Source: Candidatus Omnitrophota bacterium (GTDB lineage: Bacteria; Omnitrophota; Gorgyraeia; Zapsychrales; Zapsychraceae). From it: a DNA stretch of 64,000 bases. The notes below the pieces were generated by a model. It was not told where the DNA came from, did no database searches, and saw only the letters and a list, made by a program, of their open reading frames with translations. Location of the stretch: contig JANQMA010000042.1 of assembly GCA_028280285.1 (NCBI GenBank), forward strand, positions 3,572 to 67,571, read 5' to 3'. Position numbers and translations under genes: made by a program. Position 1 is the stretch's first letter. Each line of letters opens with the position of its first letter. Positions 20,549 through 51,439 of the stretch are shown here, in pieces.

Positions 20549-21652
20549 ATGAAGTTAGGTGTGATATTAGCTGAAAAAGAGCCATTTTCACCTAAGGGTG
20601 GAGCGTTTGCCATAAAATCTTATGAGTTAAGTAAACGGCTAAAAGGGTTTGACAAAATTGTTATTTTTTCAAAGGCTCCTATGCAAGAGGCTTTCAAAGT
20701 TCCAGGGGTAAAACATGTTTCCATTTTTTTTGGTAGAGTTTTAAACCAGTTTCCCAAAATGGGGATGCGGTATTTATTGGAAGTTTGCATGAAACTGTGT
20801 TTTTCTCGTTTTGATGTATTTTTGATATTTAATAGGGTGAATTATGTGGATGTGCTACGCAAAATAAAACCGAAAAGTAAAATTTATTTATATATTGGAA
20901 ATAGTCATATAGTGAATGAAAAAAAGGAAATTGCTGAGAAAATGTTAAAAGCTGTTTCAGGTGTTTTGTGCGTTAGTGGTTTCATTAAAAAAGAAATTGA
21001 TAATAAATACCCACAATTTTCTCATAAAACGTTTTTTTTGCCGCAAGGAATTAATATAAATGAATTTTCACCAGGCTCAGGTGGCACTAAAGACTGTTTG
21101 ACTATTTTATTTGTTGGACGCCTTAATCATGATAAAGGGGTTCATATTTTGCTTGAAGCATATCGTAAAATTATTAAGAAATATCCCCATACGAAGTTGA
21201 AGATTGTTGGATCTTCTTGGTTTGGATCTAATGAAAAAACTGAATATACGGAGAGTCTTCAGGAATTAGCACAAGGACTAGAGGAAAATATTATTTTTAC
21301 CGGATTTGTTCCAAATAACAAAATAAGCGAAGTGTACAAAACGGCTGATATTTTTGTTGCGCCTTCTATTTTTTTGGAACCTGCAGGAATGATGAATATG
21401 GAAGCAATGGCCAGTGGTATCCCGGTCATTACCACTTTGGTGGGGGGAATACCTGAACTTGTGAAAGATGCTGGAATTCTGGTTGATTCTGATAATGTTG
21501 AAGCTACTTATAATGCTTTAGTTATGTTAATTGAAAACCCTTCTTTGAGAGAAGAGTTATCAAAAAAAGGCCGGTATAGGGTAGAAAAAAAGTTTGATTG
21601 GGATAAAGTAATTCATAATTGGGAAAATGCGTTGATTGATTATGAAAAATAA
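20549..21652 (+). CDS. Family-4 glycosyltransferase, paralog 2 of the tandem pair
   Basis: About 65% identical to the previous gene, and shares a 43-nt identical 3' end (FDWDKVIHNWENALI). Confidence 0.7.
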   Translation: MKLGVILAEKEPFSPKGGAFAIKSYELSKRLKGFDKIVIFSKAPMQEAFKVPGVKHVSIFFGRVLNQFPKMGMRYLLEVCMKLCFSRFDVFLIFNRVNYVDVLRKIKPKSKIYLYIGNSHIVNEKKEIAEKMLKAVSGVLCVSGFIKKEIDNKYPQFSHKTFFLPQGININEFSPGSGGTKDCLTILFVGRLNHDKGVHILLEAYRKIIKKYPHTKLKIVGSSWFGSNEKTEYTESLQELAQGLEENIIFTGFVPNNKISEVYKTADIFVAPSIFLEPAGMMNMEAMASGIPVITTLVGGIPELVKDAGILVDSDNVEATYNALVMLIENPSLREELSKKGRYRVEKKFDWDKVIHNWENALIDYEK

Positions 21653-22565
21653 AATTAAAAAAATACCACTTTTAGGTCCATTTTTACTGTTTGTGAAAAA
21701 AACAGTAGATCATGCTTTTTATTTCTTTTCGTCATTGATTTTCTCCATTAAAGCAGTGTTGAAAATGGGCAGTAGTTTAAATCAAAACCAACGAGAAAAA
21801 TTAATTATTGTGAGTTTAACAAGCATCCCTCAACGTTTAAAAAGTATACATTTAACAATTGAATCAATTTTGTCACAAGAATTTAAGCCAGACAAAGTTA
21901 TTCTTTGGTTATCTGAAGATGATAACAATGGGAATAAAGTGATAAATGAGGATAATTTACCGCATAGTTTAAAACGTTTAGTTGATGTTGGCTTGGAAAT
22001 ACGGTTTTGTGATAATGTGCGTTCTTTTAGAAAGCTGATTTATACATTAAAAGAATATTCAGATGACATCATTGTAACGGCCGATGATGATGTGATTTAC
22101 CCACGATTTTGGCTCAAACATTTGTACTCGGCCTATCTCACCTATCCTAAAGTTGTTCATTACTACAGAGGAAGAAAGATCTTAATGAGAGAGGATGGCA
22201 CATTTGAACCTTATAAAAAATGGCCTTATATGAGTGATGAGGGTGTAACGATGATGGCTATGCCGACAGGTAAAGATGGCATCCTTTATCCTCCCGGATC
22301 ACTGCATGAAGAGGTATTTGATGAAAATAAGTTTATGCAATTATGTCCAACAGCCGATGATATATGGTTTAAGGCGATGGCCATAAAAAACGGCTATCCG
22401 TGTAAATTGGTATCATCCCAAATCAAAGATTTTAAATTGATTGCAGGTTCGCAGTCAACAAACCTTTATAAAGATAATGTGTCCAAAAATGATACACAGA
22501 TGGAAAATGTTTTTGACCATTATGGTTTAAAGAAAATGTTAAATGTGCAGGTGACCAATGGCTAA
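21636..22565 (+). CDS. Putative GT-A fold glycosyltransferase (DXD-type), family unassigned
   Basis: Motifs SLTSIPQRL and TADDDVIYP. N-terminal hydrophobic anchor. Confidence 0.4.
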   Translation: MIMKNKIKKIPLLGPFLLFVKKTVDHAFYFFSSLIFSIKAVLKMGSSLNQNQREKLIIVSLTSIPQRLKSIHLTIESILSQEFKPDKVILWLSEDDNNGNKVINEDNLPHSLKRLVDVGLEIRFCDNVRSFRKLIYTLKEYSDDIIVTADDDVIYPRFWLKHLYSAYLTYPKVVHYYRGRKILMREDGTFEPYKKWPYMSDEGVTMMAMPTGKDGILYPPGSLHEEVFDENKFMQLCPTADDIWFKAMAIKNGYPCKLVSSQIKDFKLIAGSQSTNLYKDNVSKNDTQMENVFDHYGLKKMLNVQVTNG

Positions 22566-24081
22566 TAGAGGGCAGCGGGTAATAGTCGGTTTTATTATGC
22601 GCAATTTATATACAATTATAAATATTGTGATTGCCTTTTATATGATGCCGTTTATGTTGCATCATTTAGGCGACCGCATGTATGGGCTGTGGATTCTTAT
22701 GGGGTCTTTTGTCGGCTATTTCGGTTTTTTGGATTTAGGGTTTTCAAGTGCGGTGTCGCGTTATGTTGCAAGGGCTATTGGCAAGAATGATAAAGATGAA
22801 ATCAATGAAATCGTTAACACCGCATTTGTTGTATTTGTATGTCTCAGTATTATTTTAGTGATAGTTGTCAGTACTCTTGTTGTCAGCGCGGAACATATTT
22901 TTAAAGATTTTGAAGAGATAAAAGTTCTTCAAATTCTTCTTATATGTGTAGGGGTAAACCTTACATTCAGTTTCCCGGTGCGAGCGTTTACCGGCGTTAT
23001 AAACGGCAACCTTCAGTATAAAGTTTCAGAGACTATTATCCTTTCTGAGCTGCTTTTGAGGTATGGTTTAATATATATTTTCTTTAAACTAGGCTTCGGT
23101 ATTATATCACTTGGTGTAATTGTTTGTGCGGTGGCGCTTATTACACATGTGGCATGGATTATTAGTGCTTTTAAAGTCGATTCGAATCTTAAGCTTAATT
23201 TAAAATTATTTAATAAAGCGAGACTTAAGGAATTAACTTCGTTTAGTATTTATTCATTTATAAGCAGGATGGGCGACTTGCTCATTAACAAAACGGATGC
23301 TTTTGTTATTGCCGCCTTCTTGGGGCTAACGTTTAATGCTCACTATGCTATTCCTATTGTGCTAATGAGTTATATCAGCAATTTTATAAGCAAAATAGTG
23401 GGATTAATTGGTCCGGTTATTAGTCAAGATGATGGGCGCAATGACATCGAATCTATTAAACAAAAAATGTTTTTAACCATCAAAATAGTCGTTATTTTTG
23501 TCGTCTTTTTTACATCTTTGGCTGTATTCTATGGAGAGCATTTTATTGTTAGATGGGTGGGAAGTGAATACCGGGATGCTTATCCGGTTCTTGTTGTTCA
23601 TGCGATTACAGTGTTGGCATCAAATATTATGATGCCTGCGAATACAGTTTTATTCAACACATCACGGCATAAATATTTGGCAATTATTAAATCGATTGAA
23701 GCGGGATTTAATTTGATCTTAAGCTTAATCCTTGTGACTCGTTTAGGAATGGTGGGGGTTGCCCTTGGAACCTTAATACCGGTTTTGGTCATGAGATTAA
23801 TATTCCAGCCGGTCTATTTATGTAAGGAGTTTTCTATTTCATTTAAAAAGTATTATGTGGATACATTATTAAAAAATATGGTCATAGCGGCAGCACCTAT
23901 AGTAATAACATATTTTATTCTCAAAGATTTTGCAAAAGCTCAGTATCTCACATTGATTTTTATCGGGGCTATTCATGGGATCATTTATGCTGTATTTATT
24001 TGGTTTAAAGGGTTTAGTAATACAGAGCGCGGGTATTTCATGAAATATTTAAAGTTTCAAAAAACAGTTTCATCTGGGTAA
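22558..24081 (+). CDS. Wzx-type polysaccharide flippase (MOP superfamily)
   Basis: 507 aa with 12-14 TM helices and polysaccharide-biosynthesis-protein-like loops. Confidence 0.7.
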   Translation: MANRGQRVIVGFIMRNLYTIINIVIAFYMMPFMLHHLGDRMYGLWILMGSFVGYFGFLDLGFSSAVSRYVARAIGKNDKDEINEIVNTAFVVFVCLSIILVIVVSTLVVSAEHIFKDFEEIKVLQILLICVGVNLTFSFPVRAFTGVINGNLQYKVSETIILSELLLRYGLIYIFFKLGFGIISLGVIVCAVALITHVAWIISAFKVDSNLKLNLKLFNKARLKELTSFSIYSFISRMGDLLINKTDAFVIAAFLGLTFNAHYAIPIVLMSYISNFISKIVGLIGPVISQDDGRNDIESIKQKMFLTIKIVVIFVVFFTSLAVFYGEHFIVRWVGSEYRDAYPVLVVHAITVLASNIMMPANTVLFNTSRHKYLAIIKSIEAGFNLILSLILVTRLGMVGVALGTLIPVLVMRLIFQPVYLCKEFSISFKKYYVDTLLKNMVIAAAPIVITYFILKDFAKAQYLTLIFIGAIHGIIYAVFIWFKGFSNTERGYFMKYLKFQKTVSSG

Positions 24082-24086
24082 AGATT

Positions 24087-25223
24087 ATGGCAAAGCAAAA
24101 ACATATATTATTTTTACAACCGTATTTTTATAATCCAACGTTACCGAATTTTAAAGATCGGTTTGTTATGTTGTCTGAACAATATAGCGGACATATTATC
24201 TCATCTAATGAAGATCCATCCGGATATAATAAGTTGACTTTTGACAATTTCGTTTACCATTCTTTTCCCCGGGGGCAAAATAAAATAATTAAACACATTA
24301 AGAGAATTCTGTTTGCCTGTAAACTTGTTAAAAAGCTTCATGCAAAACATGAATTTGACTATATTCATGCTTATGATCCGCTATTTTTAGGGTTGGTTAG
24401 TGTCTTAGTTAAAAAGGCTACCCGGGCAAAACTGGTAGTTGAGATCAATGGCCATTTAAAGACGGCAGGGTTTTTACAAAAGAAGGGTTTATTGAGTTGG
24501 TTTAAAAAAATCGCTTATATTCAAACTGTCAAATATGTTATCAAGCATGCAGATATGATTAAATTTCTTAATGCCGATCAAATGGCAGAATGGAAAAAGG
24601 TTGTTAAGAATAAAAAAACAGTTATTTACCATGATTTTGTTCCGACCCATTTATTCGATCCATCACAATCAAAGGACGATCATTATGTCTTGCTCGTTGG
24701 ACATCCATTTCATATAAAAGGTGTTGATATTTTGATTAAAGCCTTTAATCAGATTTCATCAGAGTTTCCCAAAATAAAGCTGAAAATTGTGGGGTTTTGT
24801 CCCAATATACAGGAACGCAAAAAATACGTTGATATGACCGAAGGTAATGCGAATATTGAAATATTGAAACCGGTTGATTACGGTGCAGTAATGACATTGT
24901 TTCAACGCTGCACATTTTTTGTTTTACCGTCACGTACGGAGGCTATGGGACGTGTCCTTATTGAAGCCATGGCATCGGGCAAATCTGTTATTGGCTCGAG
25001 GACAGGAGGTATTCCCAGGTTAGTCAAAGACGGTGAGAACGGTTTTTTATGCCAAAAAGAAAATATAGCAGAGTTGGCCCAAAAGATGAAAGAATTATTG
25101 CAGAATAATGGGTTACGGCAAAATATGGAAAACAAAAGCGTTGCATTAGTTAAAGAGCAGTTTTCCTCTGAACGATATGTGGGCTGTTTTAACAGCATGA
25201 TTGAGGAGTTAGGCCATGCGTAA
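24087..25223 (+). CDS. Family-4 glycosyltransferase
   Basis: LPSRTEAMGRVLIEAMASGKSVIGSRTGGIP...GFL. Confidence 0.7.
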   Translation: MAKQKHILFLQPYFYNPTLPNFKDRFVMLSEQYSGHIISSNEDPSGYNKLTFDNFVYHSFPRGQNKIIKHIKRILFACKLVKKLHAKHEFDYIHAYDPLFLGLVSVLVKKATRAKLVVEINGHLKTAGFLQKKGLLSWFKKIAYIQTVKYVIKHADMIKFLNADQMAEWKKVVKNKKTVIYHDFVPTHLFDPSQSKDDHYVLLVGHPFHIKGVDILIKAFNQISSEFPKIKLKIVGFCPNIQERKKYVDMTEGNANIEILKPVDYGAVMTLFQRCTFFVLPSRTEAMGRVLIEAMASGKSVIGSRTGGIPRLVKDGENGFLCQKENIAELAQKMKELLQNNGLRQNMENKSVALVKEQFSSERYVGCFNSMIEELGHA

Positions 25224-26481
25224 TTTAAATACAATCGAAAAAAGCAAGACGCCTGTTCAGAATTTTCTATTTATCACGTTTTTGTTTTTTTTATATGTGC
25301 GTATTTATGAAAATTTCTTATTTCTTATTCCATTTCAATTAACGCGTATTTTTATGCTGCTGGCAATGGCCGGTTTTATTATGAAAGCAGGCAACAGTGC
25401 GTTTCATAAAAAACCTTTGATTAAAGAAAACACAATGAAATGGTTTTTGATTTTGCAATTAATGACGATCGCATCGGTTGTTTATTCTGTATGGGCGGCG
25501 AACACTATTAATAAGTTTATAGCGACCAATGTCCGTATTATTATTACATTTGTTTTGTTTGCCAGTTTACTTTATAACAAAAAACAGGTGCAGCTTTTTG
25601 TGAAGACGATTTATTTCTGCATGTTCTTTTTTTCAATTCGCATATTTTTAGCCTTTAAAGCTGGCAGCTATATTTTTGACAGTGGCACTAAACGGATTGT
25701 TGGCGTCGGGACGCTTGCTTCGTCTGACCCTAACGATGTAGCGCTTGTTATGGGAATGACAATACCGCTTGGCCTGCACTATCTTATTGTGAAAAAAGGA
25801 ATGAAACGAATTTTTTATCTGGGATTATTTTTAAGTATATTGTGCGCCCTTGTTGTGACCGGTTCCAGAGGAGGATTGTTGGGGCTTGGTATGGGAACTA
25901 TTACCTTTTTTGCCATGCTTTACCGCAAACAAAAAGCAAAATTTGTTGGCATAATAGCATTATTGTTGATGGTTGCTGTTGTGTTTTTGCCGCAGCAATA
26001 TAAAAATAGGTTTATGTCTATGTTTAATGAACAAGAATATTCGCATACAGATCAGCGGCATGGACGTGTTGCTGTGTGGAAAAGAAGTTTTAATGCATTT
26101 ATGAAACGCCCGATCGGATATGGAGGAGCCAATTCTGTTATCGCGGAAGGGGGCGTTAAGCGGGCACAGGGGGTTACAGGAAAATGGATGGTTATACACA
26201 ATTCCTATTTACAAATGGGCTTAGAGATTGGTGTTTTGGGGCTGATCATCTATTTGATGTTTCTTAAATCCGGTTTTGATAATCTCAGGTATGTGATTAA
26301 TAAAACGGGTGCAAATAAGGACCGGGAAAGTGAAGTCCTCGCGTGTGCATTAATTGGCGGTTTGACAGCTTTTTTGGTGTCAGGAATGTTTTTATCGCAG
26401 GCCTATAATTGGAATCCTTATATTTATATTGTCCTTGCGATGGGACTTAAACGGAGTATTGAGCAGCAATATGGAAAATAA
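25216..26481 (+). CDS. Wzy-type polymerase / O-antigen-ligase-like membrane protein
   Basis: About 10 TM helices and a Wzy_C-like loop TGSRGGLLGLG...HNSYLQ. Confidence 0.55.
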   Translation: MRNLNTIEKSKTPVQNFLFITFLFFLYVRIYENFLFLIPFQLTRIFMLLAMAGFIMKAGNSAFHKKPLIKENTMKWFLILQLMTIASVVYSVWAANTINKFIATNVRIIITFVLFASLLYNKKQVQLFVKTIYFCMFFFSIRIFLAFKAGSYIFDSGTKRIVGVGTLASSDPNDVALVMGMTIPLGLHYLIVKKGMKRIFYLGLFLSILCALVVTGSRGGLLGLGMGTITFFAMLYRKQKAKFVGIIALLLMVAVVFLPQQYKNRFMSMFNEQEYSHTDQRHGRVAVWKRSFNAFMKRPIGYGGANSVIAEGGVKRAQGVTGKWMVIHNSYLQMGLEIGVLGLIIYLMFLKSGFDNLRYVINKTGANKDRESEVLACALIGGLTAFLVSGMFLSQAYNWNPYIYIVLAMGLKRSIEQQYGK

Positions 26482-27619
26482 TATGCAAAAAACGAATGTT
26501 CTTTTTATGCTGCCGAATTTTGATACGGGCGGATCTGAAAAATTGGTTGTCGATATCGTTTCTCGTCTTGACCGCAGTAAATTTTCACCGGTTGTGTGTG
26601 TGTTCTTTTCCGGGTTTTATGAAAATAAGATCAGAGAACTAAATATTCCGTTTTATGTCATTCATAAGGACAAGATTCGCTCAAAACTGGCAACGGCCCT
26701 GTTTATTAACGATATCATCAAAAAACATAAGGTTGATGTTGTGAATACTCATCATGCCAGTCCGCTTATCCAGGGTATTATTCCATTTAAGCTGCTTAAT
26801 CGTGTTAAGTGGATTCACACCGAACACACACGTTTGGATCTTGATCCGAATATTACACCGTGGATTTTGATGATTGAAAAAATATGTCTTAGGTTCGTTG
26901 ATATTTGTTTGGGTATTTCAGATGGTGTGTGTGATTACTTTGCAAACGAACTTAAGGTCAATAAAGACAAAATCAAAAAAATTTATAACGGGGTTGATGT
27001 CAGTCGTTTTATTTGGGATGCAAGTGAGTCTAATATGTTAAAAGAAAAATACCGCAAAGATATAAATATTGATGCACAGAAAGTTGTTATTGGAACTTTT
27101 GCTAATTTTCGCGAACAAAAAAACCATAAATGTCTAATCGAGGCCATACACAAGATAACGGAGACAGGATGCAATAACTTCCACCTGGTGCTTCCAGGTA
27201 GTGGTCCTGAAAAAGAAAAAATTGAACAACAAGTGTGTGACTTAAAGCTTGCATCAAAGGTGAGTTTTCTAGGTCCACGATCAGATATTCCTGAACTAAT
27301 GAATATGATAGATATTTATTGCCTGCCGTCTTTTTTTGAGGGGCTGCCATTTAGTTTGATTGAGGCGGCTGTTGCCGGCAAACAGGTTATTGCGACTGAT
27401 GTGATCGGTAACAGAGATGTTGTTAAGGCTATGGGGCGTGGTCAGCTGGTCCCATCTGATGATTCCAAAATGCTGGCCGATGTTTTGGTTGCGGCTATTC
27501 ACACCCATGGTGAAGAGAAACCAAATACTGATTGGCGGCCGGATAAACAATACACAATGGATGGGATGATGGAATCCTACGCGGCGTTGTTTAAAGGGGA
27601 GTTTACTAATGGTTTATAG
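26471..27619 (+). CDS. Family-4 glycosyltransferase
   Basis: LPSFFEGLPFSLIEAAVAGKQVIATDV. The likely start is MENNMQK at 26471; the ORF is open from 26429. Confidence 0.6.
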   Translation: MENNMQKTNVLFMLPNFDTGGSEKLVVDIVSRLDRSKFSPVVCVFFSGFYENKIRELNIPFYVIHKDKIRSKLATALFINDIIKKHKVDVVNTHHASPLIQGIIPFKLLNRVKWIHTEHTRLDLDPNITPWILMIEKICLRFVDICLGISDGVCDYFANELKVNKDKIKKIYNGVDVSRFIWDASESNMLKEKYRKDINIDAQKVVIGTFANFREQKNHKCLIEAIHKITETGCNNFHLVLPGSGPEKEKIEQQVCDLKLASKVSFLGPRSDIPELMNMIDIYCLPSFFEGLPFSLIEAAVAGKQVIATDVIGNRDVVKAMGRGQLVPSDDSKMLADVLVAAIHTHGEEKPNTDWRPDKQYTMDGMMESYAALFKGEFTNGL

Positions 27620-28587: not shown

Positions 28588-29709
28588 ATGAAAATTCTAT
28601 GTATATTTTCAAAGGTATTAGGTGGTAAGACCGTTTCAGCGTATTTCCAAAATATTTTGGATAATATGACCGGTGTTAAACCAACCTATTTTTTTCTGGA
28701 GCCTGGAGATTATAGCAAATACAAGGTATCATCCATTAGCAAAGTGTTGGGCAGTACGGCTGAGACGCTGAGTGTGTTTAAACAAAAATGGCGTGCAGAA
28801 GGCATTGATACCAGCGGTTATGATGCGCTTTTCTTTCAAAGCTATGAACTGACTGCTCTTTTTCGAAAAGAAATTCAATCAATGCCTACTCTGATGCGTG
28901 TGGATACAACGCCGGTGTTGGCTCAAGGGTTAGTGCGTCAGGAGACTGATTCATTGTTTAAAAAATTGAGATCTCATGTGGCCCAGGTTTGGATGAATAG
29001 TGTTTACGGAAATATTTTCACACATATCGATCATATTTTAACCGCCACAGAGTGGGCAAAATCGTCTTTTGTTAGAGATTACAAAATTAATCCTGAAGCT
29101 GTTACTGTGTCTTATCCGGCGAGGGATTTGGATATTTGGAAGCCGCTTGCTAATAAGCCGGTTAACGGGCCTAAGGTACTTTTATTTGTCGGTAATGATT
29201 TTAAGCGTAAAGGAGGCGAATTTTTAATTAAACTTTATCAAAAGCATTTAAAAGGAAGATATAAATTGAGGATTATATCCAATGATGCCATGCTTACTAA
29301 GTTTGAGCAGATAGAAGGTGTTGAGATTCTGCGGGGGATAGGGCACCAGGATTTAGGGCATTTTATCAAACAATATCAAACAGCCGATGCCTTTATTTTT
29401 CCAACATTAAGAGAACAATTAGGCATAGTCTTAACCGAGGCATTATCAGCCGGCCTGCCTGTTGTGGCACGTAATGTTGGTGGGGCGGGGGATGTGGTAA
29501 AAAACGATTATAATGGCTATTTGCTTGATTATGAGGCAGACATAGATCAATGGGCGCGGGTGATCGATGCTGTATGTGAAAATGAGCAAAAACACCAGGA
29601 AATGTCAAAAAATAGCAGAAAATTGGCAGAGCAGATGTTTAATCGCAAAACTAATGCTGAAAATATTTGTCGGATAGTGTATTCTTTAGCAGGATACAAA
29701 GATGATTAA
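28588..29709 (+). CDS. Family-4 glycosyltransferase
   Basis: FPTLREQLGIVLTEALSAGLPVVARNVGG...GYLL. Confidence 0.65.
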   Translation: MKILCIFSKVLGGKTVSAYFQNILDNMTGVKPTYFFLEPGDYSKYKVSSISKVLGSTAETLSVFKQKWRAEGIDTSGYDALFFQSYELTALFRKEIQSMPTLMRVDTTPVLAQGLVRQETDSLFKKLRSHVAQVWMNSVYGNIFTHIDHILTATEWAKSSFVRDYKINPEAVTVSYPARDLDIWKPLANKPVNGPKVLLFVGNDFKRKGGEFLIKLYQKHLKGRYKLRIISNDAMLTKFEQIEGVEILRGIGHQDLGHFIKQYQTADAFIFPTLREQLGIVLTEALSAGLPVVARNVGGAGDVVKNDYNGYLLDYEADIDQWARVIDAVCENEQKHQEMSKNSRKLAEQMFNRKTNAENICRIVYSLAGYKDD

Positions 29710-30493
29710 AGAAGGTCTGAAAAATTTGTTATGGCTTCTGCCTTATGAGATAAGGCGTTCGATAAGTATTCTTAAGAATTACGAATACTACCAGCTTTTA
29801 CAAACAAGACGTAAAACAGTTTACGCGGAAGGGTATTCCCTTAAAGGTTTTGATGAAAATAAGTGCATTTTTATTCATATCCCTAAAACGGCAGGCATAT
29901 CTTTATGTCAAAGTTTGTTTGGTAATTTTGGTCCCGGTCATTTAAATATTCAAACCTATCAACTCATATATAATAGAAATGAATTTGACAAATATTTTAA
30001 ATTTACTTTTGTAAGAAACCCATGGGATAGAGTTGTTTCTGCCTATTATTTTCTTAAAAAAGGTGGGCGGAGTGCTGCAGATCAAAAATGGGCAGATGAA
30101 AATTTAGCGCAATACAAAGACTTTGAGTCTTTTATCCTGGGTTGGCTTAATGCTGAAAATATTGATACATTTGCGCATTTTGTTCCTCAATACAAATATC
30201 TATGCAGTCCTTTAAGCAAGCATCCTATTGTAGATTTTCTTGGTTATTATGAGCATTTAGCGAGTGATTTTAAATACATATGCAATAAGATTGGAATTAA
30301 AGTTGACCTGCAAGAGTTGAATACTACCAAAAATGATCGGCGAGATTACAAAAATTATTATACAAATGAGACGAAACAGATTGTTGAAAAATTATACAAA
30401 AATGACATTGAGTTATTTGGTTACACATTTGATAATGCGTCACTACCGAGCCAACTAGCAAAGCGGGATAAGTTATATGTGGATAGAAATTAA
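29702..30493 (+). CDS. Sulfotransferase (Sulfotransfer_2/3-like, PAPS-dependent)
   Basis: 5'-PSB motif IFIHIPKTAGISL and 3'-PB motif FTFVRNPWDRVVSAYYF. Confidence 0.65.
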   Translation: MIKEGLKNLLWLLPYEIRRSISILKNYEYYQLLQTRRKTVYAEGYSLKGFDENKCIFIHIPKTAGISLCQSLFGNFGPGHLNIQTYQLIYNRNEFDKYFKFTFVRNPWDRVVSAYYFLKKGGRSAADQKWADENLAQYKDFESFILGWLNAENIDTFAHFVPQYKYLCSPLSKHPIVDFLGYYEHLASDFKYICNKIGIKVDLQELNTTKNDRRDYKNYYTNETKQIVEKLYKNDIELFGYTFDNASLPSQLAKRDKLYVDRN

Positions 30494-33359
30494 GCGCATC
30501 ATACAAGTTTTATTAGTCGGAGCCGTTGTTTGTTTTGCGACAAACGCTTCTGCCCAAGGGTCGCAAAAAGCTGTTATTCAGTTTACGGTTAACGGAAAAA
30601 GTGATCCGCGCATCTTAAATACGGGTAATCCTATTACATTGTACCGTGTTGAAAATTCTAAAAGGGTCTCAACAGGTATAAAATCTCCGATTTCACCTAA
30701 ATCGTCTGTTGAATTTGATTTACCGGATACAAAAAGCAAATACCTGCTGCAATTTTCCATTGCGGGAAGTAGTACACCCGTATTCAGTAAGCCTATTCAG
30801 CCCGGGTTTCAAAAACTTGATTTGCCCATTGCGCATATTAAATTACAGGGTGATCAATCTACTCTGAGTGAATATGTGAATAAAAACGTCTATCTATTTA
30901 CCAAAGATAGCGGTAAGTACAAAAATTTATGGCAGAAATCTAAAATATTTAAGACGGGTGAGTTTTTTATTTATCTTCCCGGTGATGCTGATTATGTAGC
31001 AGGGGTTGAGCTTAAACACCGCCAATACCTGTATTCCGGGCCGCTTAAGGCCGGGGTTCAAAAGTGGGATCCTAAGGCAAACCGTCCTCCTGTGATCAAT
31101 ATTATTGAAAAACAGACTATTCATGCTGATGATAAGGTTAACATTAAATTAACCGCATCTGATATAGATAAAGACACACTTGAGCTGAAACTTTTACAAG
31201 CCCCGGACTTTGTTTTACTCAGGGATTGGCATGATAACGCAGGCTCTTTAGTTTTTCAACCAAAGGTCAAGGATAAGGGTAAATTTGAAATAATATATGG
31301 GGTTTCTGATGGAGAGCATTTAACAAAACATAGTTTTGAGCTTGTTGTTAGGGGGGCTCAAAATACAATCGCTGAAACGATTAATGATACTTTTTCCAAT
31401 ATTGTTGGCAAGAAAGAAAAGCATGGTCCGGCAATTTCAGCGATATGGGTTAATAATGGAGAAGACAAGGTAACACAAGATGAACTACGCAAATCAAAAG
31501 GGTATGATGTTACGAGTAGTGTGTGGGATGGCACAAACATTAAATTATTCGGCGCGCGTAATGAAATGGTTAATTTTAATCTTATTATCGAGGCCGCTAA
31601 GCACGATGCTGAAGAGGTTAGTGTTGAGCTTGATGGTTTAATTGGACCGGAAGGATTTGTTATTTCATCACGTCAAGCTAATAAAGATGACCCGTTTGAT
31701 TTTATTAATCGTAATATCGAATTATTTTTTGTCCGCTATCTACAAATTCTGGGTGTCAGCCAACTGGCGTATAATCCGCAGTACGATGAGCGGCATGTGC
31801 CGGCAAAATTACGGCTTCCTTTTTCCAGTAAAAATGGGAAGTCCAGAGGGAAATGGGAAAATAGGCCTAACGCCAATAAGTATTATCCCGATATTGCTGT
31901 TCCTTTAGAGGTGATAGGAAGTTTTCCTATTGCGGCCAAATCTAATCAAAGTATTTGGGCGGATATTTACATTCCGCGCAATGCGCCTGCAGGTACTTAT
32001 CACGGGACGGTTAAAGTATTTGAGTCCAATAAGCAATTTAAAGAAATTCCTCTTGCGCTTAAGGTCATTGATTTTACACTACCGGATGAATCGACAGCCA
32101 AAACAATGGTTTATTTTAATGAAGAAAATCTCAATGACAGATATTTTGGAAAAAAGTGGCCGATATTTGATCAAGAGCCGCTTGTACGCCAAAAACAAAT
32201 GGCCCAGGTTTGGTATAATCATCATAAGGTTGCCCATAGGCATAAGATTTCTTTAATTGATGATGGCAAGTCAATCAATCCCGGACGTATAGGTGATCAC
32301 CTGCCGTGGGGTAATGCAAAATGGATGCCGGTACTAAACGGGGAGCTTTTTACCGATCAGTATGGTTATCAAGGTCCCGGGGAAGGTGTGTCGAGTGGTG
32401 TTTACTCGATCGGAACATACGGAGGATGGAAAAGAGGCTGGGATGAAGAAAATAAAGAAGATCTGTGGAAAAAGTCTGACCTTTGGGTAACATGGTTTGA
32501 TGAGGTTTTTCCGAATGTGGAATATTTTCTCTATTTACTGGATGAGCCCAAAAGAGGCGCTTATGAAAAAGTTGAGCGTTGGGCTCGTTGGATTGATGAG
32601 AATCCTGGTCCAGGGAGGAGGCTTAAAACTTTAACAACGGGAAAACTGCAAGAAGTCTATTATCACATGCCGTCGGTTGATATTGCTTTTACATGGTGGG
32701 GTGATAAAGAAAAATATGCGCCTATTGTTATGGATTATTTAAAGAGCGGTAAGCCGTACTGGGCCTATAATGGGCACCGTCCGTGGGCGGGCAGTTATGC
32801 GATTGAAGATGAAGGTGTTGCTATGCGGACATGGGGATGGATTCAGTTTAAACATACAGTGGCCCGTTGGTTTTATTGGCAGGCAACGCATTACAAAAAT
32901 TCTTCCTATATCCGAGAAGAGACAAATGTGTTTGAAACGGCTTGTACATTCGGTCGTTGTAATGATAGTTGGAAAGATAAGTATGGCAAAACCGGGCATA
33001 ATTATAATAACGGGGACGGTGTTTTGTTTTATCCGGGGATTGAAAGGCGCTATCCGCAGGATAGTTATGGACTGTTAGGTCCGATTACTAGTTTGCGCCT
33101 TAAGCATTGGCGACGGGGTATTCAGGACCATGATTATTTAACTATGGCGGCACAATATGACCCTCAAAAAGTGAAGGGTATTGTGCAGCGCATAATCCCT
33201 AAGGTGCTTTGGGAAGTGGGTGTAACTGATCCCAAAGATCCCTCTTATGTGCATGCAGATATTAGTTGGTCGATTAATCCGGATGTATGGGAAAAAGCTC
33301 GACGTGAACTAGCAGAAATTATTATTAAAGGGCAAAGCAAGGATAATAAAAATGGATAA
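30477..33359 (+). CDS. Large secreted multidomain protein of unknown function; cadherin-like Ig domain plus a W/Y-rich C-terminal region that may be glycoside-hydrolase-like
   Basis: Signal peptide ending NASAQG. Ig-like segment [35 protein letters not shown]. The C-terminal region is rich in conserved W/Y/G: [23 protein letters not shown]. Confidence 0.45.
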
Positions 33360-33969
33360 AGAAATACAAAAAAATATCATTCCTCATGATGCAATTATTA
33401 ATAAGAACCATCGACGGAAATTAAATCATCATGGATCAGCGGTATTATGGTTTACAGGATTATCAGGTTCGGGTAAATCTACCATCGCACATAATTTAGA
33501 GTCAGCTTTGTATGAACGTGAAGTAAGAACATATGTTTTGGATGGAGATAATGTGCGTACCGGGCTTAATAAGGGTTTGACTTTTTCTCCCGAGGACCGT
33601 AAAGAAAATATACGCCGTATTGGTGAGGTATCAAAATTATTTATGGATTGTGGAATCTTTTTGCTGACGGCATTCATATCACCCTATAGGGAAGACAGGC
33701 AATTTGTACGGTCCCTGGTTGAGTCAGGAGAGTTTATTGAGATTTATGTTAAGTGTCCAGTTGAGGTGTGCGAAAAACGTGATGTCAAAGGTCTTTATAA
33801 AAAGGCACGTGATGGTGAAATCAAGAATTTTACCGGAATCAGTGCGCCATATGAAGAGCCTGAGTCTGCTGAAATCTTAATCGATTCGGATGCGATGACA
33901 CTTGAAAAAAGTGTGGAAGTGATTATTGAATATCTGGAGCAGAATGGCTACTTGGAAATAAAGGGATAA
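33352..33969 (+). CDS. cysC: Adenylyl-sulfate (APS) kinase
   Basis: P-loop [16 protein letters not shown] and [11 protein letters not shown]. 205 aa. Confidence 0.85.
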
Positions 33970-37836: not shown

Positions 37837-39012
37837 ATGCCGGTACTTATCAATACATTTTGGACATTACTTGGCCTCATTGTCTATTGTTATTTTGGCT
37901 ATCCATTTTTAGTTAAGGCTTTATCTTATATTGTTGCCAAGCCGGTTGCCAAGGACGATTTCGAACCGGAGGTTTCTATCCTCATTTCTGCTTGGAATGA
38001 AGAAGATGTGATTAAGGGCAAGATTAATAATTTACTTGCGCTTGAGTATCCAAAAGAAAAGCTTGAAATTATCATCGGTGCCGACGGGTGTACCGATAAA
38101 ACGGTTGAGATCATTAACGCTGTAAACGATCCGCGTGTGCGCTGCATTGAATATGATCAGCGTCGGGGAAAGATGACCACACTGAATAAACTAGTTAAAG
38201 AAGCTAAATATGACTATATTGTTTTTACCGATGCTCGTCAGTTTTTTGATAAAAATGCGGTCAGACAACTTTTAGCGAATTTTTCTGATAAAAAAGTCGG
38301 TTGTGTTAGTGGGGAATTGCGTTTTTGGGAAAAAGAGGGCGCAACGGCTAAGGGAGTTAATTTGTATTGGCAATATGAAAAATTTATTCGCGCGCAAGAA
38401 AGTAAGCTTGGTTCGATGCTCGGGGCAACAGGTGCTATTTATGCGATCCGCAAAGAATTATTTAGAGAAATTCCCGAAAATATTGTTTTAGATGATATGT
38501 ATGTGCCTTTTAAAATAATTGAACAAAAATACCGTGCTATTTTTGATGAATCGGCTTTTGTGTATGATGAGGTTGCCGATAATCCAAACGAAGAATACCG
38601 GCGTAAAGCACGGACATTATACGGTAATTATCAGATGTTCGGTCAATTTGCCCATATGTTTAATCCGTTTACCAGCCCTATTGCTATTCAGTATTTTTCA
38701 CATAAACTGCTTAGGGTTTTGGTGCCCATATTTATGATCGTTTTGTTTGTGATTAACTTTTTTATGCTGAGTGAACCTCTTTACTGGATGATGATGGGGT
38801 TGCAAATTTTGTTCTACACAATGGCCGGGCTAGGTGTCTTGGCAAGAGGTAAAAAGCATGTTATCCTTAAAGTCATTTTAAAAATAGTGTACGTGCCTTA
38901 TGTATTTTGTTTATTGAATTTTTCAGCGCTTTCAGGATTGCTGCGATTTCTAAGAGGGCGTCAAGAGGTGACATGGAAAAAAGCGAGAACAGTTAATGCA
39001 AGGAATAGGTAA
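37837..39012 (+). CDS. Membrane-bound family-2 glycosyltransferase (processive/cellulose-synthase-like architecture)
   Basis: N-terminal TM, then SILISAWNEE, GADGCTD, FTDAR and a C-terminal TM bundle. Confidence 0.65.
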   Translation: MPVLINTFWTLLGLIVYCYFGYPFLVKALSYIVAKPVAKDDFEPEVSILISAWNEEDVIKGKINNLLALEYPKEKLEIIIGADGCTDKTVEIINAVNDPRVRCIEYDQRRGKMTTLNKLVKEAKYDYIVFTDARQFFDKNAVRQLLANFSDKKVGCVSGELRFWEKEGATAKGVNLYWQYEKFIRAQESKLGSMLGATGAIYAIRKELFREIPENIVLDDMYVPFKIIEQKYRAIFDESAFVYDEVADNPNEEYRRKARTLYGNYQMFGQFAHMFNPFTSPIAIQYFSHKLLRVLVPIFMIVLFVINFFMLSEPLYWMMMGLQILFYTMAGLGVLARGKKHVILKVILKIVYVPYVFCLLNFSALSGLLRFLRGRQEVTWKKARTVNARNR

Positions 39013-39017: not shown

Positions 39018-39836
39018 ATGATTAATGCTGCCAAAAAAAATTCAACACTCATTTTCATTTTTATCATTTTTCTTTTGGCCTATGTCCCGACGCTGCAGTG
39101 GATGTGGGATCGCTGGTGGGCGGCTGATTCCTATTATAGTCATGGGGTTTTAGTTCCTTTTGTGACCGCGTATCTTATTTGGCAGCTTAAAGATGAATTA
39201 GCTAACATAAAACAAAGTGAATCTAAATGGGGCATCGTTTTTATTATTATTGGTGTTTTGTTGCATTTAGTAAGTGCGCTATTTCGAGTATATTTCAGCT
39301 CAGGATTTGCGATGTTGATCGTTTTTATCGGGATAGCGTTATATTTTTATGGTTACGAAATTTGTAAAAGGCTTGCTTTTCCGATCTTTTTTCTTGCGTT
39401 TATGCTGCCCTTGCCAGAGGTTGCCATTGTTAATATCAGTTTTAAACTGAAGATGTTTGCTGCCGAGCTTGCAACTGTTGCACTTAATGGAATGAATATT
39501 CCGGCTATCCGTGAAGGAAGTTTAATTAAAATGCCGCATGCCTTTGTTGTTGTTGACGACGTGTGTAGTGGGCTCCGTTCACTTATTTCCTTAACCGCCT
39601 TAGGAAGTATTTTTGCCTATTGGCTTAAAGGACCGATATGGAAACGCGCCATTGTTTTTTTAACAACAATTCCGATTGCGATTATAACAAATATGCTGCG
39701 AGTGATTTTTTTGGCATTTGTCAGCGAAGTGTGGGGGGCTGAATATATCGATGGTTTTATTCATGACGCATCAGGCTTTGCTGTTTTCGCTATTGCATTT
39801 GTGATGTTGTATGTGGTTAATAAAGTGATTGAATAA
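39018..39836 (+). CDS. Exosortase (EpsH-type, probably XrtA-like)
   Basis: Eight-TM protein with exosortase motifs around DDVCSGLRSLISL (Cys) and ITNMLRV (Arg). It is followed by epsI and PEP-CTERM genes. Confidence 0.8.
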   Translation: MINAAKKNSTLIFIFIIFLLAYVPTLQWMWDRWWAADSYYSHGVLVPFVTAYLIWQLKDELANIKQSESKWGIVFIIIGVLLHLVSALFRVYFSSGFAMLIVFIGIALYFYGYEICKRLAFPIFFLAFMLPLPEVAIVNISFKLKMFAAELATVALNGMNIPAIREGSLIKMPHAFVVVDDVCSGLRSLISLTALGSIFAYWLKGPIWKRAIVFLTTIPIAIITNMLRVIFLAFVSEVWGAEYIDGFIHDASGFAVFAIAFVMLYVVNKVIE

Positions 39837-40468
39837 TGAATAAAAATGTTATCACCACAACTATCATCATTTTACTTTTAGCTTTTTCAGGCTATATTTC
39901 ATGGAATTTCTATTTCAAGGAATATAATGCTGCCGATACCGTTAATATCCATCTTTTTCCGAAAACAATTGGTGAATGGGAATCGACTGAGTTGGTCGTA
40001 ACAGAAAAAGAAAAAGCCATTTTAGAGACCGATAATGTGTTCGTGCGAAATTATTTGACAAAATCGGGGAAAAAAGTACAATTGTTCATAGTTTATTCCC
40101 AGAGCAACCGCAAGGTTAGCCATCCGCCTGAAGTTTGCTATACAGGTGGAGGGATTTCGATCTTAGAAAAAAAGAAGACTCCGCTTCAAACAGGTGAAAC
40201 AAACTTTAACGCAATCCAAATGCTCATGGAGCAAGGACCAAATAAGCAGTATGTGTACTATTGGTTCAAAGTAGGAGACTCCTTTACGCCTAATTATTGG
40301 CAACAACAATTATTGATTGCCACTAAATCGCTTTTGAAACAGCCTTCAAGTAGTGCGCTGATCCGCGTTTCGGCGTATATTGGTAATAATGGTGGAGAAA
40401 AGGCGAAAAAAGACGTTGAGGAATTTATCCAGTTAATTCAGCCTGAATTAGCTACATATCTGCCCTAA
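39836..40468 (+). CDS. EpsI-family exosortase-associated protein
   Basis: N-terminal TM, motif KTIGEWES, about 200 aa. Its start overlaps the exosortase stop, consistent with translational coupling. Confidence 0.65.
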   Translation: MNKNVITTTIIILLLAFSGYISWNFYFKEYNAADTVNIHLFPKTIGEWESTELVVTEKEKAILETDNVFVRNYLTKSGKKVQLFIVYSQSNRKVSHPPEVCYTGGGISILEKKKTPLQTGETNFNAIQMLMEQGPNKQYVYYWFKVGDSFTPNYWQQQLLIATKSLLKQPSSSALIRVSAYIGNNGGEKAKKDVEEFIQLIQPELATYLP

Positions 40469-40785: not shown

Positions 40786-41631
40786 ATGATGCAAAGAAAA
40801 GCCAAACAAATTAAACGAATCTCATTCGCTATGCTAATTGCTGTAGTTGGGTTGTATTGTACAGCAACAGCCTGGGCTGCTGTGTCCTATGTGCAGCCGA
40901 AAGATGCTGTTACTGCTCATAAGGTTACAACTCCAATTCCTGCAACAATTTCTGATGAGAACAAGTCGCGTGCGCCAGAACCGACAAGTTTGGCCCTGTT
41001 TGGGACAGGATTTTTTGGAATGGTCTTAAGCTTCATCCAACGAACCTATAGAGCAGCAAAGCGTACATTTGATGTTATTGCAGCCATTTTAGGCCTCATA
41101 GTTCTGTCTCCTCTTCTTCTTCTCGCAGCTGTGCTTGTGAAGGCGACGTCTAGGGGGCCTATTATTTACTCACAAACGCGTGTGGGAAAAGGTGGCGAGC
41201 TATTTGAGATATATAAATTCCGCACTATGCGTACAGATGCGGAAAAAGACACTGGTCCTGTGTGGGCCCAAACAAATGATAACCGTCTAACACCGGTTGG
41301 CGGTTTCTTAAGGAAAGCGCATATTGATGAGCTGCCACAGCTGATCAATATATTAAAGGGAGAGATGAGCCTTATCGGTCCACGTCCCGAAAGACCTGTC
41401 TTTGTGGAAGATTTCAAAGAACAGATTACAGATTACGAAAGACGTTTAGATGTTAAGCCAGGTTTAACTGGGTTGGCGCAAGTGTTTCATCGTTATGATG
41501 AAACCATTAATGATGTGCGTAAAAAGGTGAAGTACGATCTTCTTTATATTAAGAGGGTATGCTTTATGAGTGATATCCGCATCTTACTTCGCACCGTCCG
41601 TGTTGTATTTACGGGTGAAGGGGCTAAGTAG
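40786..41631 (+). CDS. Priming polyprenyl-phosphate sugar transferase (WbaP/EpsB C-terminal domain) with an N-terminal signal peptide and a PEP-CTERM-like motif in the same reading frame
   Basis: Residues ~90-280 are a bacterial sugar-transferase domain: KRTFDVIAAILGL...PVWAQ...LPQLINILKGEMSLIGPRPERP. Residues 1-80 read as signal peptide (MLIAVVGLYCTATAWA), ~35 aa, then APEPTSLALFGTGFFGMVLSFIQRTYRAAKR, a PEP + TM + basic sorting signal. There is no stop codon between the two parts. Confidence 0.7.
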   Translation: MMQRKAKQIKRISFAMLIAVVGLYCTATAWAAVSYVQPKDAVTAHKVTTPIPATISDENKSRAPEPTSLALFGTGFFGMVLSFIQRTYRAAKRTFDVIAAILGLIVLSPLLLLAAVLVKATSRGPIIYSQTRVGKGGELFEIYKFRTMRTDAEKDTGPVWAQTNDNRLTPVGGFLRKAHIDELPQLINILKGEMSLIGPRPERPVFVEDFKEQITDYERRLDVKPGLTGLAQVFHRYDETINDVRKKVKYDLLYIKRVCFMSDIRILLRTVRVVFTGEGAK

Positions 41632-44914: not shown

Positions 44915-44916
44915 CT

Positions 44917-48427: not shown

Positions 48428-49095
48428 GATTGAATTTGTCCGTCTTTAAGCAGGATAAGCCGCTTGGCACGATCCATTATATCTTTGTCATGGGTTGAAA
48501 AGATAAATGTTGTTGTATGTTCTTCATTGAGTTTGAGCATCAGTTCAATGAGAGAGGCTGAGGTTTTTGAATCAAGGTTTGCTGTCGGTTCATCGGCCAT
48601 AATCACTTTCGGTTTTGTCACAATCGAGCGGGCAACCGCAACACGCTGTTGCTGTCCGCCGCTTAATTGATTAGGGAAGCGCGTTAAATAATCGCCAAGT
48701 CCAACTTGTTCCAGTATATCAATGGCGCGCAGCCGGCGTTGTTTAGCCGATATGTTTTGCAATAGTAAAGGATACTCGACATTTTCAATTGCCGTTAGGG
48801 TATTGATTAAATTATAGGCCTGAAAAATAAAACCGATGGTATGGAGACGAAAATAAGACAGCTGTTTTTCATTAAGTGTTGAGAGATTCTCTTCATTAAA
48901 GATCACCTCACCGCTGCTCGGTGCATCTAGTGCACTGAGGATATTAAGCAAAGAAGATTTGCCGCTTCCTGACGGGCCGGCGATCGCCGTGAATTCACCG
49001 CGTTCAATGGTAAAACTAACATCATTAAGCGCAGGCGTTGTTATGCCGCCAGAGGTCTTGTAGGTTTTGGTTAAATTATTAACTTGAATAAGCAT
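48424..49095 (-). CDS. ABC transporter ATP-binding protein (LolD/MacB-type)
   Basis: Walker A GPSGSGKSS, signature LSGGQQQRVAVAR, Walker B VIMADEPT. Confidence 0.85.
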   Translation of the reverse strand: MLIQVNNLTKTYKTSGGITTPALNDVSFTIERGEFTAIAGPSGSGKSSLLNILSALDAPSSGEVIFNEENLSTLNEKQLSYFRLHTIGFIFQAYNLINTLTAIENVEYPLLLQNISAKQRRLRAIDILEQVGLGDYLTRFPNQLSGGQQQRVAVARSIVTKPKVIMADEPTANLDSKTSASLIELMLKLNEEHTTTFIFSTHDKDIMDRAKRLILLKDGQIQS

Positions 49096-51282: not shown

Positions 51283-51439
51283 AGTAAAGGAAAAATTTGA
51301 TAAGCCTGTGTAAAGTTTAATGTTTAGTGTTTGAAACAAGTAAACCTTTTTTAAACTTTAAACTATAAACATTAAACAGAATTGTCTACATTACTCTTAC
51401 TATTAATATTGTATATCATCCCGTTGTCTTGAAAACGCA

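Follow-up and report, generated by a model that had tools for sequence, protein, structure and literature searches.

Hydrolases that act on the product of their own operon are common in exopolysaccharide (EPS) operons (e.g., PslG, PelA, BcsZ, WssD, PssZ, and PgaB; PMC4928890). Here we describe a candidate for such an enzyme in a 64,000-nucleotide (nt) stretch of DNA from a "Candidatus Omnitrophota" bacterium (GenBank assembly GCA_028280285.1, contig JANQMA010000042.1, positions 3,572 to 67,571; this whole stretch is called the window below). The gene (positions 30477 to 33359, + strand) lies between a sulfotransferase gene and an adenosine 5'-phosphosulfate (APS) kinase gene (cysC) and encodes a multidomain protein of 960 amino acids (aa). 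The core of this GH123-like protein has a GH123-type fold and falls in the GH123/DUF4091 superfamily, its predicted catalytic Asp-Glu pair is conserved, and so is the order of the genes around it. We consider the protein very probably to be an exported GH123-superfamily hydrolase and, with less confidence, favor the reading that it processes the polysaccharide made by its own locus.

PslG (GH39), the hydrolase domain of PelA, BcsZ (GH8), the C-terminal domain of PgaB, and PssZ share with the GH123-like protein their export, which is predicted for the latter, and their encoding on the same strand of a polymer-making operon (PMC4928890). These enzymes are proposed or were shown to process their own polymers (PMC4928890), whereas the role of the protein described here is a predicted one. 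It also differs from PslG- and BcsZ-type enzymes in its fold family and in the predicted substrate-assisted cleavage of an N-acetylhexosamine (HexNAc) linkage. Most of those systems are synthase dependent, while the system in the window is Wzx/Wzy dependent and exosortase associated. The result is unsurprising in kind, since many EPS operons have such an enzyme: an operon-encoded EPS hydrolase is a familiar arrangement, and what is new and unstudied is the enzyme clade that fills the slot.

Succinoglycan is made by a pathway of the Wzx/Wzy type, as in the window. Its hydrolase ExoK is a GH16 beta-glucanase, with a fold unrelated to that of the GH123-like protein and with another bond specificity. 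In Sinorhizobium meliloti, ExoK and ExsH yield low-molecular-weight succinoglycan and set the ratio of the high- to the low-molecular-weight form (PMC4916376), whereas an effect of the GH123-like protein on polymer size is a predicted one. In the exo cluster, exoK adjoins the modifier gene exoH (encoding a succinyltransferase), and succinylation alters the susceptibility of the polymer to cleavage (PMC4916376). The window, with a sulfotransferase gene directly upstream of the hydrolase-like gene, is a close analogue of this arrangement.

The locus also resembles the XrtA/PEP-CTERM exosortase loci defined by Haft's TIGRFAM/NCBIfam marker set. The shared components are the exosortase, EpsI, a pepcterm_ATPase-like ATPase, stp1/stp2-like GT4 glycosyltransferases, a PEP_O_lig_1-like Wzy, a PEP-CTERM protein, and a Bac_transf protein. 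All of these markers score below the curated equivalog cut-offs; the window therefore contains a divergent version of the XrtA/PEP-CTERM system. A GH123-like component lies outside the described marker set, and NCBIfam has no model for it (the protein had only weak NCBIfam matches, to Ig-like regions of M36 peptidases). We found no papers in the literature that place GH123 or DUF4091 enzymes in loci for EPS biosynthesis or with an exosortase, and the names Desulfovibrio, Geobacter, and Omnitrophica are absent from the supplements of a structural study of the superfamily (PMC11087588).

Relationship to the GH123/DUF4091 superfamily

The protein was modeled with AlphaFold2 (AF2) from a 41-sequence alignment (mean predicted local distance difference test [pLDDT] score, 85.6; predicted template modeling [TM] score, 0.75). 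In a Foldseek search of the PDB, the top 22 matches were all beta-N-acetylgalactosaminidases or hexosaminidases of the GH123 superfamily (E = 1e-31 to 1e-22; target TM = 0.63 to 0.77), and matches beyond them collapsed to a TM of about 0.1. The superfamily matches included NgaCa (8k2f and 8k2g), NgaDssm (8k2j), NgaAt (8k2h and 8k2i), NgaP2, NgaLy, NaNga (8p4l), BvGH123 (5l7r), and CpNga123 (5fqe). NgaCa was the best match (E = 1e-31; TM = 0.75), and the TM values for NgaCa and NgaDssm were 0.75 to 0.77.

Sequence comparisons led to the same superfamily. A phmmer search of PDB sequences with the protein itself matched 8k2f at 1.5e-8, and a profile of its family matched 8k2f at 1e-21, as well as 8k2h, 8k2j, 5fqe, and 5l7r, with the beta-sandwich region included in the matches. 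Both phmmer and hmmsearch aligned aa 840 to 891 to the DUF4091 region of 8k2f, 8k2h, and 8k2j. For profile-profile comparisons with hhalign, we used the fragments of Group 1, 3, and 4 enzymes in the supplement of PMC11087588, whose sequences end at 400 aa. Over the beta-sandwich, the match to these enzymes reached a probability of 99.5%; a global comparison of the barrel with the same fragments failed (E = 0.8). In Pfam, PF22680 and PF19543 were found in all 41 family members and PF13320 (GH123_cat, formerly DUF4091) in 26 of them (E <= 0.01). The protein itself scored 36.8 bits against PF22680, a model of the N-terminal domain (cut-off, 27), and one relative (P0032) scored 25.8 bits against PF13320 (cut-off, 23.1). 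Some homologues are labeled "DUF4091 domain-containing protein" at NCBI.

Four independent lines of evidence (i.e., the fold, PDB sequences, profile-profile comparison, and Pfam) place the core in the GH123/DUF4091 superfamily, where the protein belongs to a deeply diverged, uncharacterized clade. A preliminary description of the window, made from the letters alone, had guessed that the C-terminal part might adopt a glycoside-hydrolase-like (TIM-barrel) fold and had suggested structure prediction and profile-profile searches, with DUF4091 among the families for comparison. The AF2 model, Foldseek, the profile searches, and the intact Asp-Glu pair bear out that guess; the fold is that of a GH123-type enzyme, and DUF4091 proved to be the right family for comparison.

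The closest structural relatives are NgaCa (8k2f/8k2g; Group 1, "oligosaccharide-releasing") and NgaDssm (8k2j; Group 3). As in these enzymes, a beta-sandwich is followed by a (beta/alpha)8 barrel and a DUF4091-like stretch, with an Asp-Glu (DE) pair after barrel strand 4. Identity to them is only 12 to 18%, however. Conserved inserts in the sandwich (about aa 425 to 470), after strand 2 (about aa 595 to 641), and after strand 7 (about aa 802 to 850) extend the core, which exceeds theirs by about 120 aa. The protein further differs in its three additional N-terminal Ig-like domains, in the location of its gene inside a biosynthetic operon, in the lack of a match to Pfam GH123_cat, and in an invariant Arg that apparently occupies the position of a conserved Gly.

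The conserved Asp-Glu pair

Catalysis in the superfamily is substrate assisted and retaining, as established by mutagenesis, thiazoline complexes, and nuclear magnetic resonance; within the DE motif, the Asp stabilizes the 2-acetamido group and the Glu serves as the acid/base (PMC11087588). The predicted catalytic pair of the GH123-like protein is D689-E690 (positions 32541 to 32546, + strand), in the motif FLYLLDEPK, an assignment based on position in the AF2 model, conservation, and weak alignments. The pair directly follows the fourth barrel strand (E682-688 in the AF2 secondary structure) and does not vary among the relatives in either of our two alignments (41 of 41 and 84 of 84). A low-stringency local hhalign alignment, weak when taken alone (E = 0.013), pairs D689-E690 with the "TADE" of NgaCa and Y764 with the Tyr of NgaCa VWSYNC. 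In local Pfam GH123_cat matches of four relatives, the DE falls at about profile positions 161 to 162, and in two of these the match starts exactly there. A pattern of a hydrophobic strand followed by Asp-Glu-Pro is common to the protein, NgaBa (QHLADEP), NgaCp (LHVSDEP), and NgaBf (WHISDEP). The identification of D689-E690 as the superfamily DE motif is well supported, though not proven, by these sequence comparisons.

Nine residues are strictly conserved over Groups 1 to 4 and GH123 (D95, W115, D327, E328, Y392, G427, W431, Y466, and R478 in NgaLy numbering; PMC11087588). The predicted counterparts, partly from weak alignments, are identical at eight of the nine positions: D472 and W494 in the sandwich, D689, E690, Y764, and W801, and Y852 and R874 in the DUF4091-like stretch. 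D472 is replaced by Glu in 20 of the 84 relatives.

Gene structure and domain organization

The open reading frame (ORF) begins with ATG and comprises 960 codons, as seen in the ORF listing and the translation. The four peptide strings quoted in the preliminary description were all located in the translation: a string ending in LELK at aa 204 to 238, a 14-letter string at aa 761 to 774, WGWIQFKH at aa 786 to 793, and GDGVLFYPG at aa 846 to 854. The start codon lies inside the sulfotransferase gene (a 17-nt overlap; sulfotransferase taa at 30491 to 30493), with GGGA about 10 nt 5' of the ATG. The stop codon (taa; 33357 to 33359) lies within ATGGATAA, the start of cysC (ATG at 33352), giving an 8-nt overlap. 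Overlapping junctions are common across the operon (10 of 29), and four of them are of the 8-nt type. The protein has more than 600 homologues, with its C-terminal 640 aa 46 to 64% identical across many phyla (E = 0); it is therefore the product of a real gene.

A putative Sec signal peptide was read by eye at aa 1 to 26 (30477 to 30554, + strand), with a K/R n-region, a hydrophobic core, and an A-S-A cleavage site (ASA|QG); the same reading found no lipobox at the N terminus. Short-form homologues have N-terminal signal or anchor sequences of their own, and some relatives carry a type IX secretion system C-terminal sorting domain. The protein would thus be exported to the compartment that holds the polymer. 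On the reading frame, the signal peptide, and the overlaps with both neighboring genes, the preliminary description and our analysis agree.

Behind the signal peptide, the AF2 model shows two tandem Ig-like beta-sandwiches (aa 29 to 116 and 117 to 198; 30561 to 31070, + strand; pLDDT, about 90) and a third Ig-like domain of the Cadherin_5/Big_9 type (aa 202 to 292; 31080 to 31352, + strand). The Pfam matches of the third domain are weak (Cadherin_5, E = 4.5e-5; Big_9, E = 6.6e-5, slightly above the cut-off), yet the domain is real, to judge by the confident model. Modeled alone, aa 29 to 292 reached a pLDDT of 90.7; a Foldseek search with that model returned only generic Ig-domain arrays, with no specific function. 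The three domains may act as a spacer or bind the polymer or the surface. This N-terminal module is confined to relatives P0003 to P0009 (the cadherin-like domain is absent from P0003 and P0006), and the majority of the family consists of proteins of about 650 aa that have their own signal peptides and lack Ig-like domains.

A flexible or disordered linker (aa 293 to 319; 31353 to 31433, + strand; pLDDT <50 over aa 296 to 315) connects this module to the core. The core begins with the GH123-type N-terminal beta-sandwich (aa 320 to 541; 31434 to 32099, + strand), which was recognized by PF22680 (E = 4e-9), hhalign, and the PDB profile search and which contains the conserved D472 and W494 and the clade-specific insert. 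The (beta/alpha)8 catalytic barrel follows (aa 542 to 872; 32100 to 33092, + strand; AF2 and Foldseek), with eight strand/helix units in the AF2 secondary structure and the DUF4091-like stretch GDGVLFYPG...SLRLK. The C-terminal region (aa 873 to 960; 33093 to 33356, + strand) is helical in the AF2 model (helices at 873 to 894, 896 to 906, and 935 to 959), and R874, K876, R879, R880, and D884 are invariant in the 84-relative alignment.

This organization refines the domains of the preliminary description. The cadherin-like or putative Ig domain is confirmed. The N-terminal beta-rich region is indeed beta rich, but it amounts to about 170 aa (i.e., the two Ig-like domains) ahead of the cadherin-like domain rather than about 250 aa. 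The C-terminal TIM barrel of about 600 aa is a (beta/alpha)8 glycoside hydrolase barrel, but the 640 aa in question also contain a beta-sandwich and helices.

Genomic context of the gene and its relatives

Pfam and NCBIfam annotation places the gene within a long same-strand polysaccharide locus. The locus begins with genes for Wza, Wzz/GNVR, a pepcterm_ATPase-like ATPase, a tyrosine-kinase-like protein, and a TupA-like ATP-grasp protein. These are followed by four GT4 genes, an unknown gene, and genes for Wzx, GT4, Wzy, GT4, acyltransferase_3, GT4, and the sulfotransferase. The GH123-like gene comes next, followed by genes for APS kinase, a GT4, an stp1-like GT4, UDP-glucose dehydrogenase, and a PgaC-like GT2. 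Genes for the exosortase, EpsI, Bac_transf, a PEP-CTERM protein, an FkbM methyltransferase, and an MBOAT protein complete the locus. Several of these have counterparts in related loci, among them the Wzx-GT4-Wzy-GT4 block 5' of the gene (22558 to 27619, + strand; Pfam). The membrane GT2 (37837 to 39012, + strand; Pfam GT2 and GT21) is PgaC/IcaA-like and is a candidate maker of a beta-linkage of the polymer; it matches NCBIfam PgaC_IcaA, the model of the poly-beta-1,6-GlcNAc (N-acetylglucosamine) synthase, at E = 1e-26, below the cut-off. The exosortase (EpsH, XrtA/XrtD-like) and EpsI (39018 to 40468, + strand) were assigned by Pfam and fall below the NCBIfam subtype cut-offs. The Wzy resembles the NCBIfam model [quoted passage not shown] also below the cut-off.

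The family comprises about 602 clusters at 50% identity (E <= 1e-30) and occurs in at least 329 species-representative genomes, mostly of uncultured Omnitrophota, Planctomycetota, Desulfobacterota, Chloroflexota, and some archaea. The nearest relatives are from metagenome-assembled genomes (MAGs) of Planctomycetales and Omnitrophota. The same slot of the locus is occupied by the closest relatives (50 to 64% identity), found in Pelotalea chapellei, in Pseudodesulfovibrio mercurii, and in MAGs of Omnitrophota, Planctomycetales, Nitrospirota, and Desulfobulbaceae. This slot lies after Wzx-GT4-Wzy-GT4 and variable modifiers and before GT4-GT4-GT2, with exosortase-EpsI-Bac_transf on its 3' side where enough of the contig is visible, and it recurs in relatives from Omnitrophota, Planctomycetota, Desulfobacterota, and Nitrospirota. 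Loci L002, L004, L008, L010, and L089 share the Wzx-GT4-Wzy-GT4 order. Exosortase and EpsI genes lie 3' of the homologue in L002, L004, L008, and L010 and 5' of it in L013; in total, 5 of the 12 clade relatives with context have an exosortase. Most EPS-type loci with the gene also have a homologue of the PgaC-like GT2 (37 to 57% identity), which is its most consistently co-conserved neighbor and follows it directly in L004 and L006. The gene directly 5' of the homologue varies (i.e., a GT4, a GT2, a methyltransferase, a pyruvyl-transferase/GT2 pair, or an unknown gene).

In a neighbor-joining tree of 84 core sequences, the GH123-like protein belongs to a clade whose members, wherever their flanks were usable, are all part of an EPS locus. 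Another clade, larger and with Chloroflexota, Bathyarchaeia, and Patescibacteria among its members, consists mostly of stand-alone genes, with a few EPS-associated sub-clades. We counted contexts in the 40 related loci whose flanks reach 5 kb or more on both sides, a sample that is biased to close relatives and contains a few duplicate loci, and scored an EPS locus where at least two EPS genes were present. Such genes were found in 17 of the 40 loci. The rule "always in EPS loci" is thereby ruled out for the whole family, as the other 23 show no EPS genes. The preliminary description had counted homologues outside polysaccharide loci against its own proposal; this objection holds by half, for such homologues exist, but the window's clade always lies inside. 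In the window itself, the gene belongs to the biosynthetic operon, shares its strand, and is conserved along with it.

Predicted function and alternative explanations

From the family and the gene context, we infer a chemistry, a substrate, and a physiological role. The gene would be co-transcribed with the Wzx/Wzy-dependent, exosortase-associated polysaccharide genes, and the protein, after Sec export, would act on the polysaccharide of the locus in the periplasm or at the cell surface. As in the rest of its family, it would cleave a beta-linked HexNAc bond (i.e., of N-acetylgalactosamine [GalNAc] or GlcNAc) with substrate assistance, keeping the anomeric configuration; D689 would orient and polarize the 2-acetamido group of the substrate, which is the nucleophile, and E690 would be the general acid/base. 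Candidate roles are trimming, chain release, the setting of chain length, and the clearance of mis-exported polymer. Since GT4 enzymes are retaining and hence form alpha-linkages, we speculate that the cleaved bond is a beta-HexNAc linkage formed either by the PgaC-like GT2 conserved alongside the gene or by Wzy as it links the repeat units. Sumida et al. (Nat Commun 2024, PMC11087588) have proposed EPS repeat units as a substrate of cleft-type Group 1 enzymes.

A more far-reaching version of this proposal, which we advance tentatively and regard as rather doubtful, is that the clade is a new, distant GH123 subfamily fixed in a widespread Wzx/Wzy system that is often accompanied by an exosortase, an endo-beta-N-acetylhexosaminidase that works against Wzy, with sulfation tuning the cleavage. 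Cutting at the bond that joins repeat units, or at the bond made by the PgaC-like GT2, would then set chain length or release repeat-unit oligomers, and the sulfated polymer would be the substrate in the present genome.

Several observations weigh against a hydrolase dedicated to the polymer of its own locus. At the sequence level, the barrel matches the characterized enzymes weakly (low-stringency hhalign probability, 3%, at the E value of 0.013 given above), and the protein has no match to PF13320 at E <= 1 in the Pfam scan; because 26 of the 41 family members do match this model, the clade appears to lie at its edge. The equivalence of the DE pair comes from several weak, agreeing lines rather than from a three-dimensional superposition. 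The Gly of the superfamily, at the start of a barrel strand and four residues before the conserved Trp, apparently corresponds to R797 (nt 32865 to 32867), in a region where the alignment is weak; this Arg is invariant in 84 of 84 relatives. No gene of the locus proves that the polymer contains beta-HexNAc. With 23 of the 40 well-flanked relatives outside a recognizable EPS locus, the family cannot, taken together, be called specific to biosynthetic loci, and a cross-phylum identity of 46 to 60% is unusually high for an enzyme that tracks variable polymers. The non-EPS members and the high conservation leave room for a common, locus-independent substrate.

The superfamily Gly position is described as having room only for glycine (PMC11087588), and R797 may reflect an alteration of the active site or of packing that is specific to the clade. 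The replacement could also be taken, together with the large clade-specific inserts in the beta-sandwich and after barrel strands 2 and 7, as a sign of a catalytically altered GH123-like scaffold that binds the polymer and does not cut it; NgaMg, a Group 1 protein with an intact DE motif, was inactive on all tested substrates (PMC11087588). Pseudo-enzymes usually lose their catalytic residues, however, whereas D689 and E690 are invariant in all 84 relatives, as are the aromatics that line the active site of the relatives, which makes such a binding protein highly improbable. A less remote, though still unlikely, alternative is suggested by that same high identity, which would fit one common substrate better than locus-specific polymers: the protein may be a foraging or turnover glycosidase that acts on an environmental or foreign beta-HexNAc glycan in nutrition or competition, with its operon position meaningless. 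Most of the more distant members do stand alone, beside unrelated neighbors such as proteases, kinases, and transporters, and the characterized GH123 enzymes are catabolic (PMC11087588). A passenger gene, however, would not be expected in the same slot, on the same strand, and often overlapping its neighbors in the at least four phyla of the window's clade, and the window has no sugar-uptake or catabolic genes beside it. A third alternative, in our estimate somewhat less probable again, ties the protein to the exosortase system as a non-hydrolytic enzyme (i.e., a transglycosylase or a glycan trimmer that acts on glycosylated PEP-CTERM proteins in the maturation of a polysaccharide-protein matrix). 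Retaining, substrate-assisted enzymes are able to transglycosylate, the Ig-like and cadherin-like domains could bind matrix components, and exosortase, EpsI, and PEP-CTERM proteins accompany the gene in the window and in the 5 clade relatives noted above, as does, in the window, the Wzy that resembles an exosortase A-associated O-glycosylation ligase model. Against this, an exosortase is missing within 10 kb of the gene in the Pseudodesulfovibrio and Pelotalea members of the clade and is altogether absent from the context of most of the family, and most relatives lack the Ig-like domains.

A link to sulfation was proposed in the preliminary description, which read the overlaps with both neighbors as translational coupling and, from this, a stoichiometric tie to the sulfotransferase (Sulfotransfer_2; 29702 to 30493, + strand; Pfam E = 5.8e-21) and the APS kinase (33352 to 33969, + strand; Pfam APS_kinase E = 2.8e-69). 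The protein would then be a periplasmic modifier coupled to sulfation or a carbohydrate sulfatase. Some GH123-superfamily enzymes do accept GalNAc with a 4-sulfate; compared with the unsulfated substrate, NgaDssm shows about twofold activity on GalNAc4S-beta-4MU (PMC11087588). The GH123-like gene physically overlaps both sulfation genes. Since, in addition, Pfam Sulfotransfer_2 includes GalNAc-4-O-sulfotransferases, action on a sulfated polymer is possible in this genome. The stoichiometric link itself found no support: overlaps occur at 10 of the 29 operon junctions, and homologues of the sulfotransferase or the APS kinase were found in none of 90 related loci (1.34 Mb). Given this absence and the different modifier genes upstream in different genomes, the sulfation pair is a lineage-specific insertion into a variable "decoration" region and not a partner of the enzyme, although sulfation could still alter the cleavability of the polymer. 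A sulfatase is ruled out by the lack of a sulfatase Pfam match, of the formylglycine motif C/S-x-P-x-R, and of a sulfatase-like fold among the Foldseek matches, and a lyase by the best fold matches, which are GH123-type hydrolases; of the "depolymerase/lyase" also suggested in that description, the depolymerase is the option that the evidence favors. A sulfation-coupled modifier is thus largely refuted as a general function, and we give it very little credence.

If the protein does process the polysaccharide of its own locus, a hydrolase is added to the exosortase/PEP-CTERM-type polysaccharide locus, whose described marker set has none, and the role of GH123 widens from glycan catabolism to polysaccharide biosynthesis and processing. 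A family without a name gains a fold, a catalytic pair, and a likely job, i.e., a testable function. Operon-encoded hydrolases are specific reagents for dissolving the biofilm matrix of their own producers (PMC4928890), and the GH123-like protein could help solve the structure of the probably sulfated polymer made by the window locus.

Additional features of the window

Sulfated EPS has been described as unique, among bacteria, to cyanobacteria (PMC8205485). Here, a sulfotransferase and an APS kinase lie inside a Wzx/Wzy exosortase-type EPS operon of an apparently non-cyanobacterial (Planctomycetes-Verrucomicrobia-Chlamydiae [PVC]/Omnitrophota-like) genome. No sat or cysDN was found among the annotated window ORFs, an annotation that leaves outside it the ORFs at 57427 to 63555. 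Like the sulfation genes, homologues of UDP-glucose dehydrogenase and TupA are absent from the 90 related loci. The TupA-like ATP-grasp protein (16152 to 17009; Pfam E = 9e-65), which has no homologue in any of them, may be a lineage-specific decoration enzyme, perhaps for the addition of an amino acid.

The Bac_transf priming sugar transferase (40786 to 41631) has a weak PEP-CTERM motif match at aa 63 to 81 (E = 7e-4), and its homologue in L003 (19294 to 20160) shows the same faint match; a sorting-like motif is odd in an enzyme of the cytoplasmic membrane. Directly upstream of the locus, rpoN (encoding sigma-54) lies on the - strand (10322 to 11686), and in L004 (13049 to 16536) a GAF histidine kinase and a sigma-54 activator come right after EpsI. 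These regulators suggest a sigma-54 control of such loci of the PrsK/PrsR type.

ORFs without a Pfam match in or beside the locus lie at 21636 to 22565, 44830 to 45855, and 45852 to 48427 (- strand), with sizes of 309, 341, 478, and 383 aa; the 309-aa ORF separates the GT4 run from Wzx, overlapping each of them. Among the stand-alone members of the GH123-like family, some of the Chloroflexia type (L086, 1 to 7131; L087, 4397 to 7321 and 12525 to 17270) are near secreted proteins rich in cadherin/Big_9 repeats, with an M4 peptidase nearby, and others are near giant Ser/Thr kinases fused to formylglycine-generating enzyme (FGE)-sulfatase domains.

An IS1595/ISXO2-like transposase ORF (49328 to 49975; Pfam E = 7e-26) separates the EPS region from a MacB/FtsX-LolA-like transporter set, which consists of an ABC ATPase (48424 to 49095), an FtsX permease (50059 to 51339), and a LolA-like protein (51440 to 52198). 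A gene for a FeeM-like N-acyl amino acid synthase/GNAT protein (52234 to 52950) is followed by one for an 864-aa fusion of AMP-binding, carrier-protein, and acyltransferase domains (52964 to 55558), and the two are a possible pair for acyl-lipid or lipoamino-acid biosynthesis.

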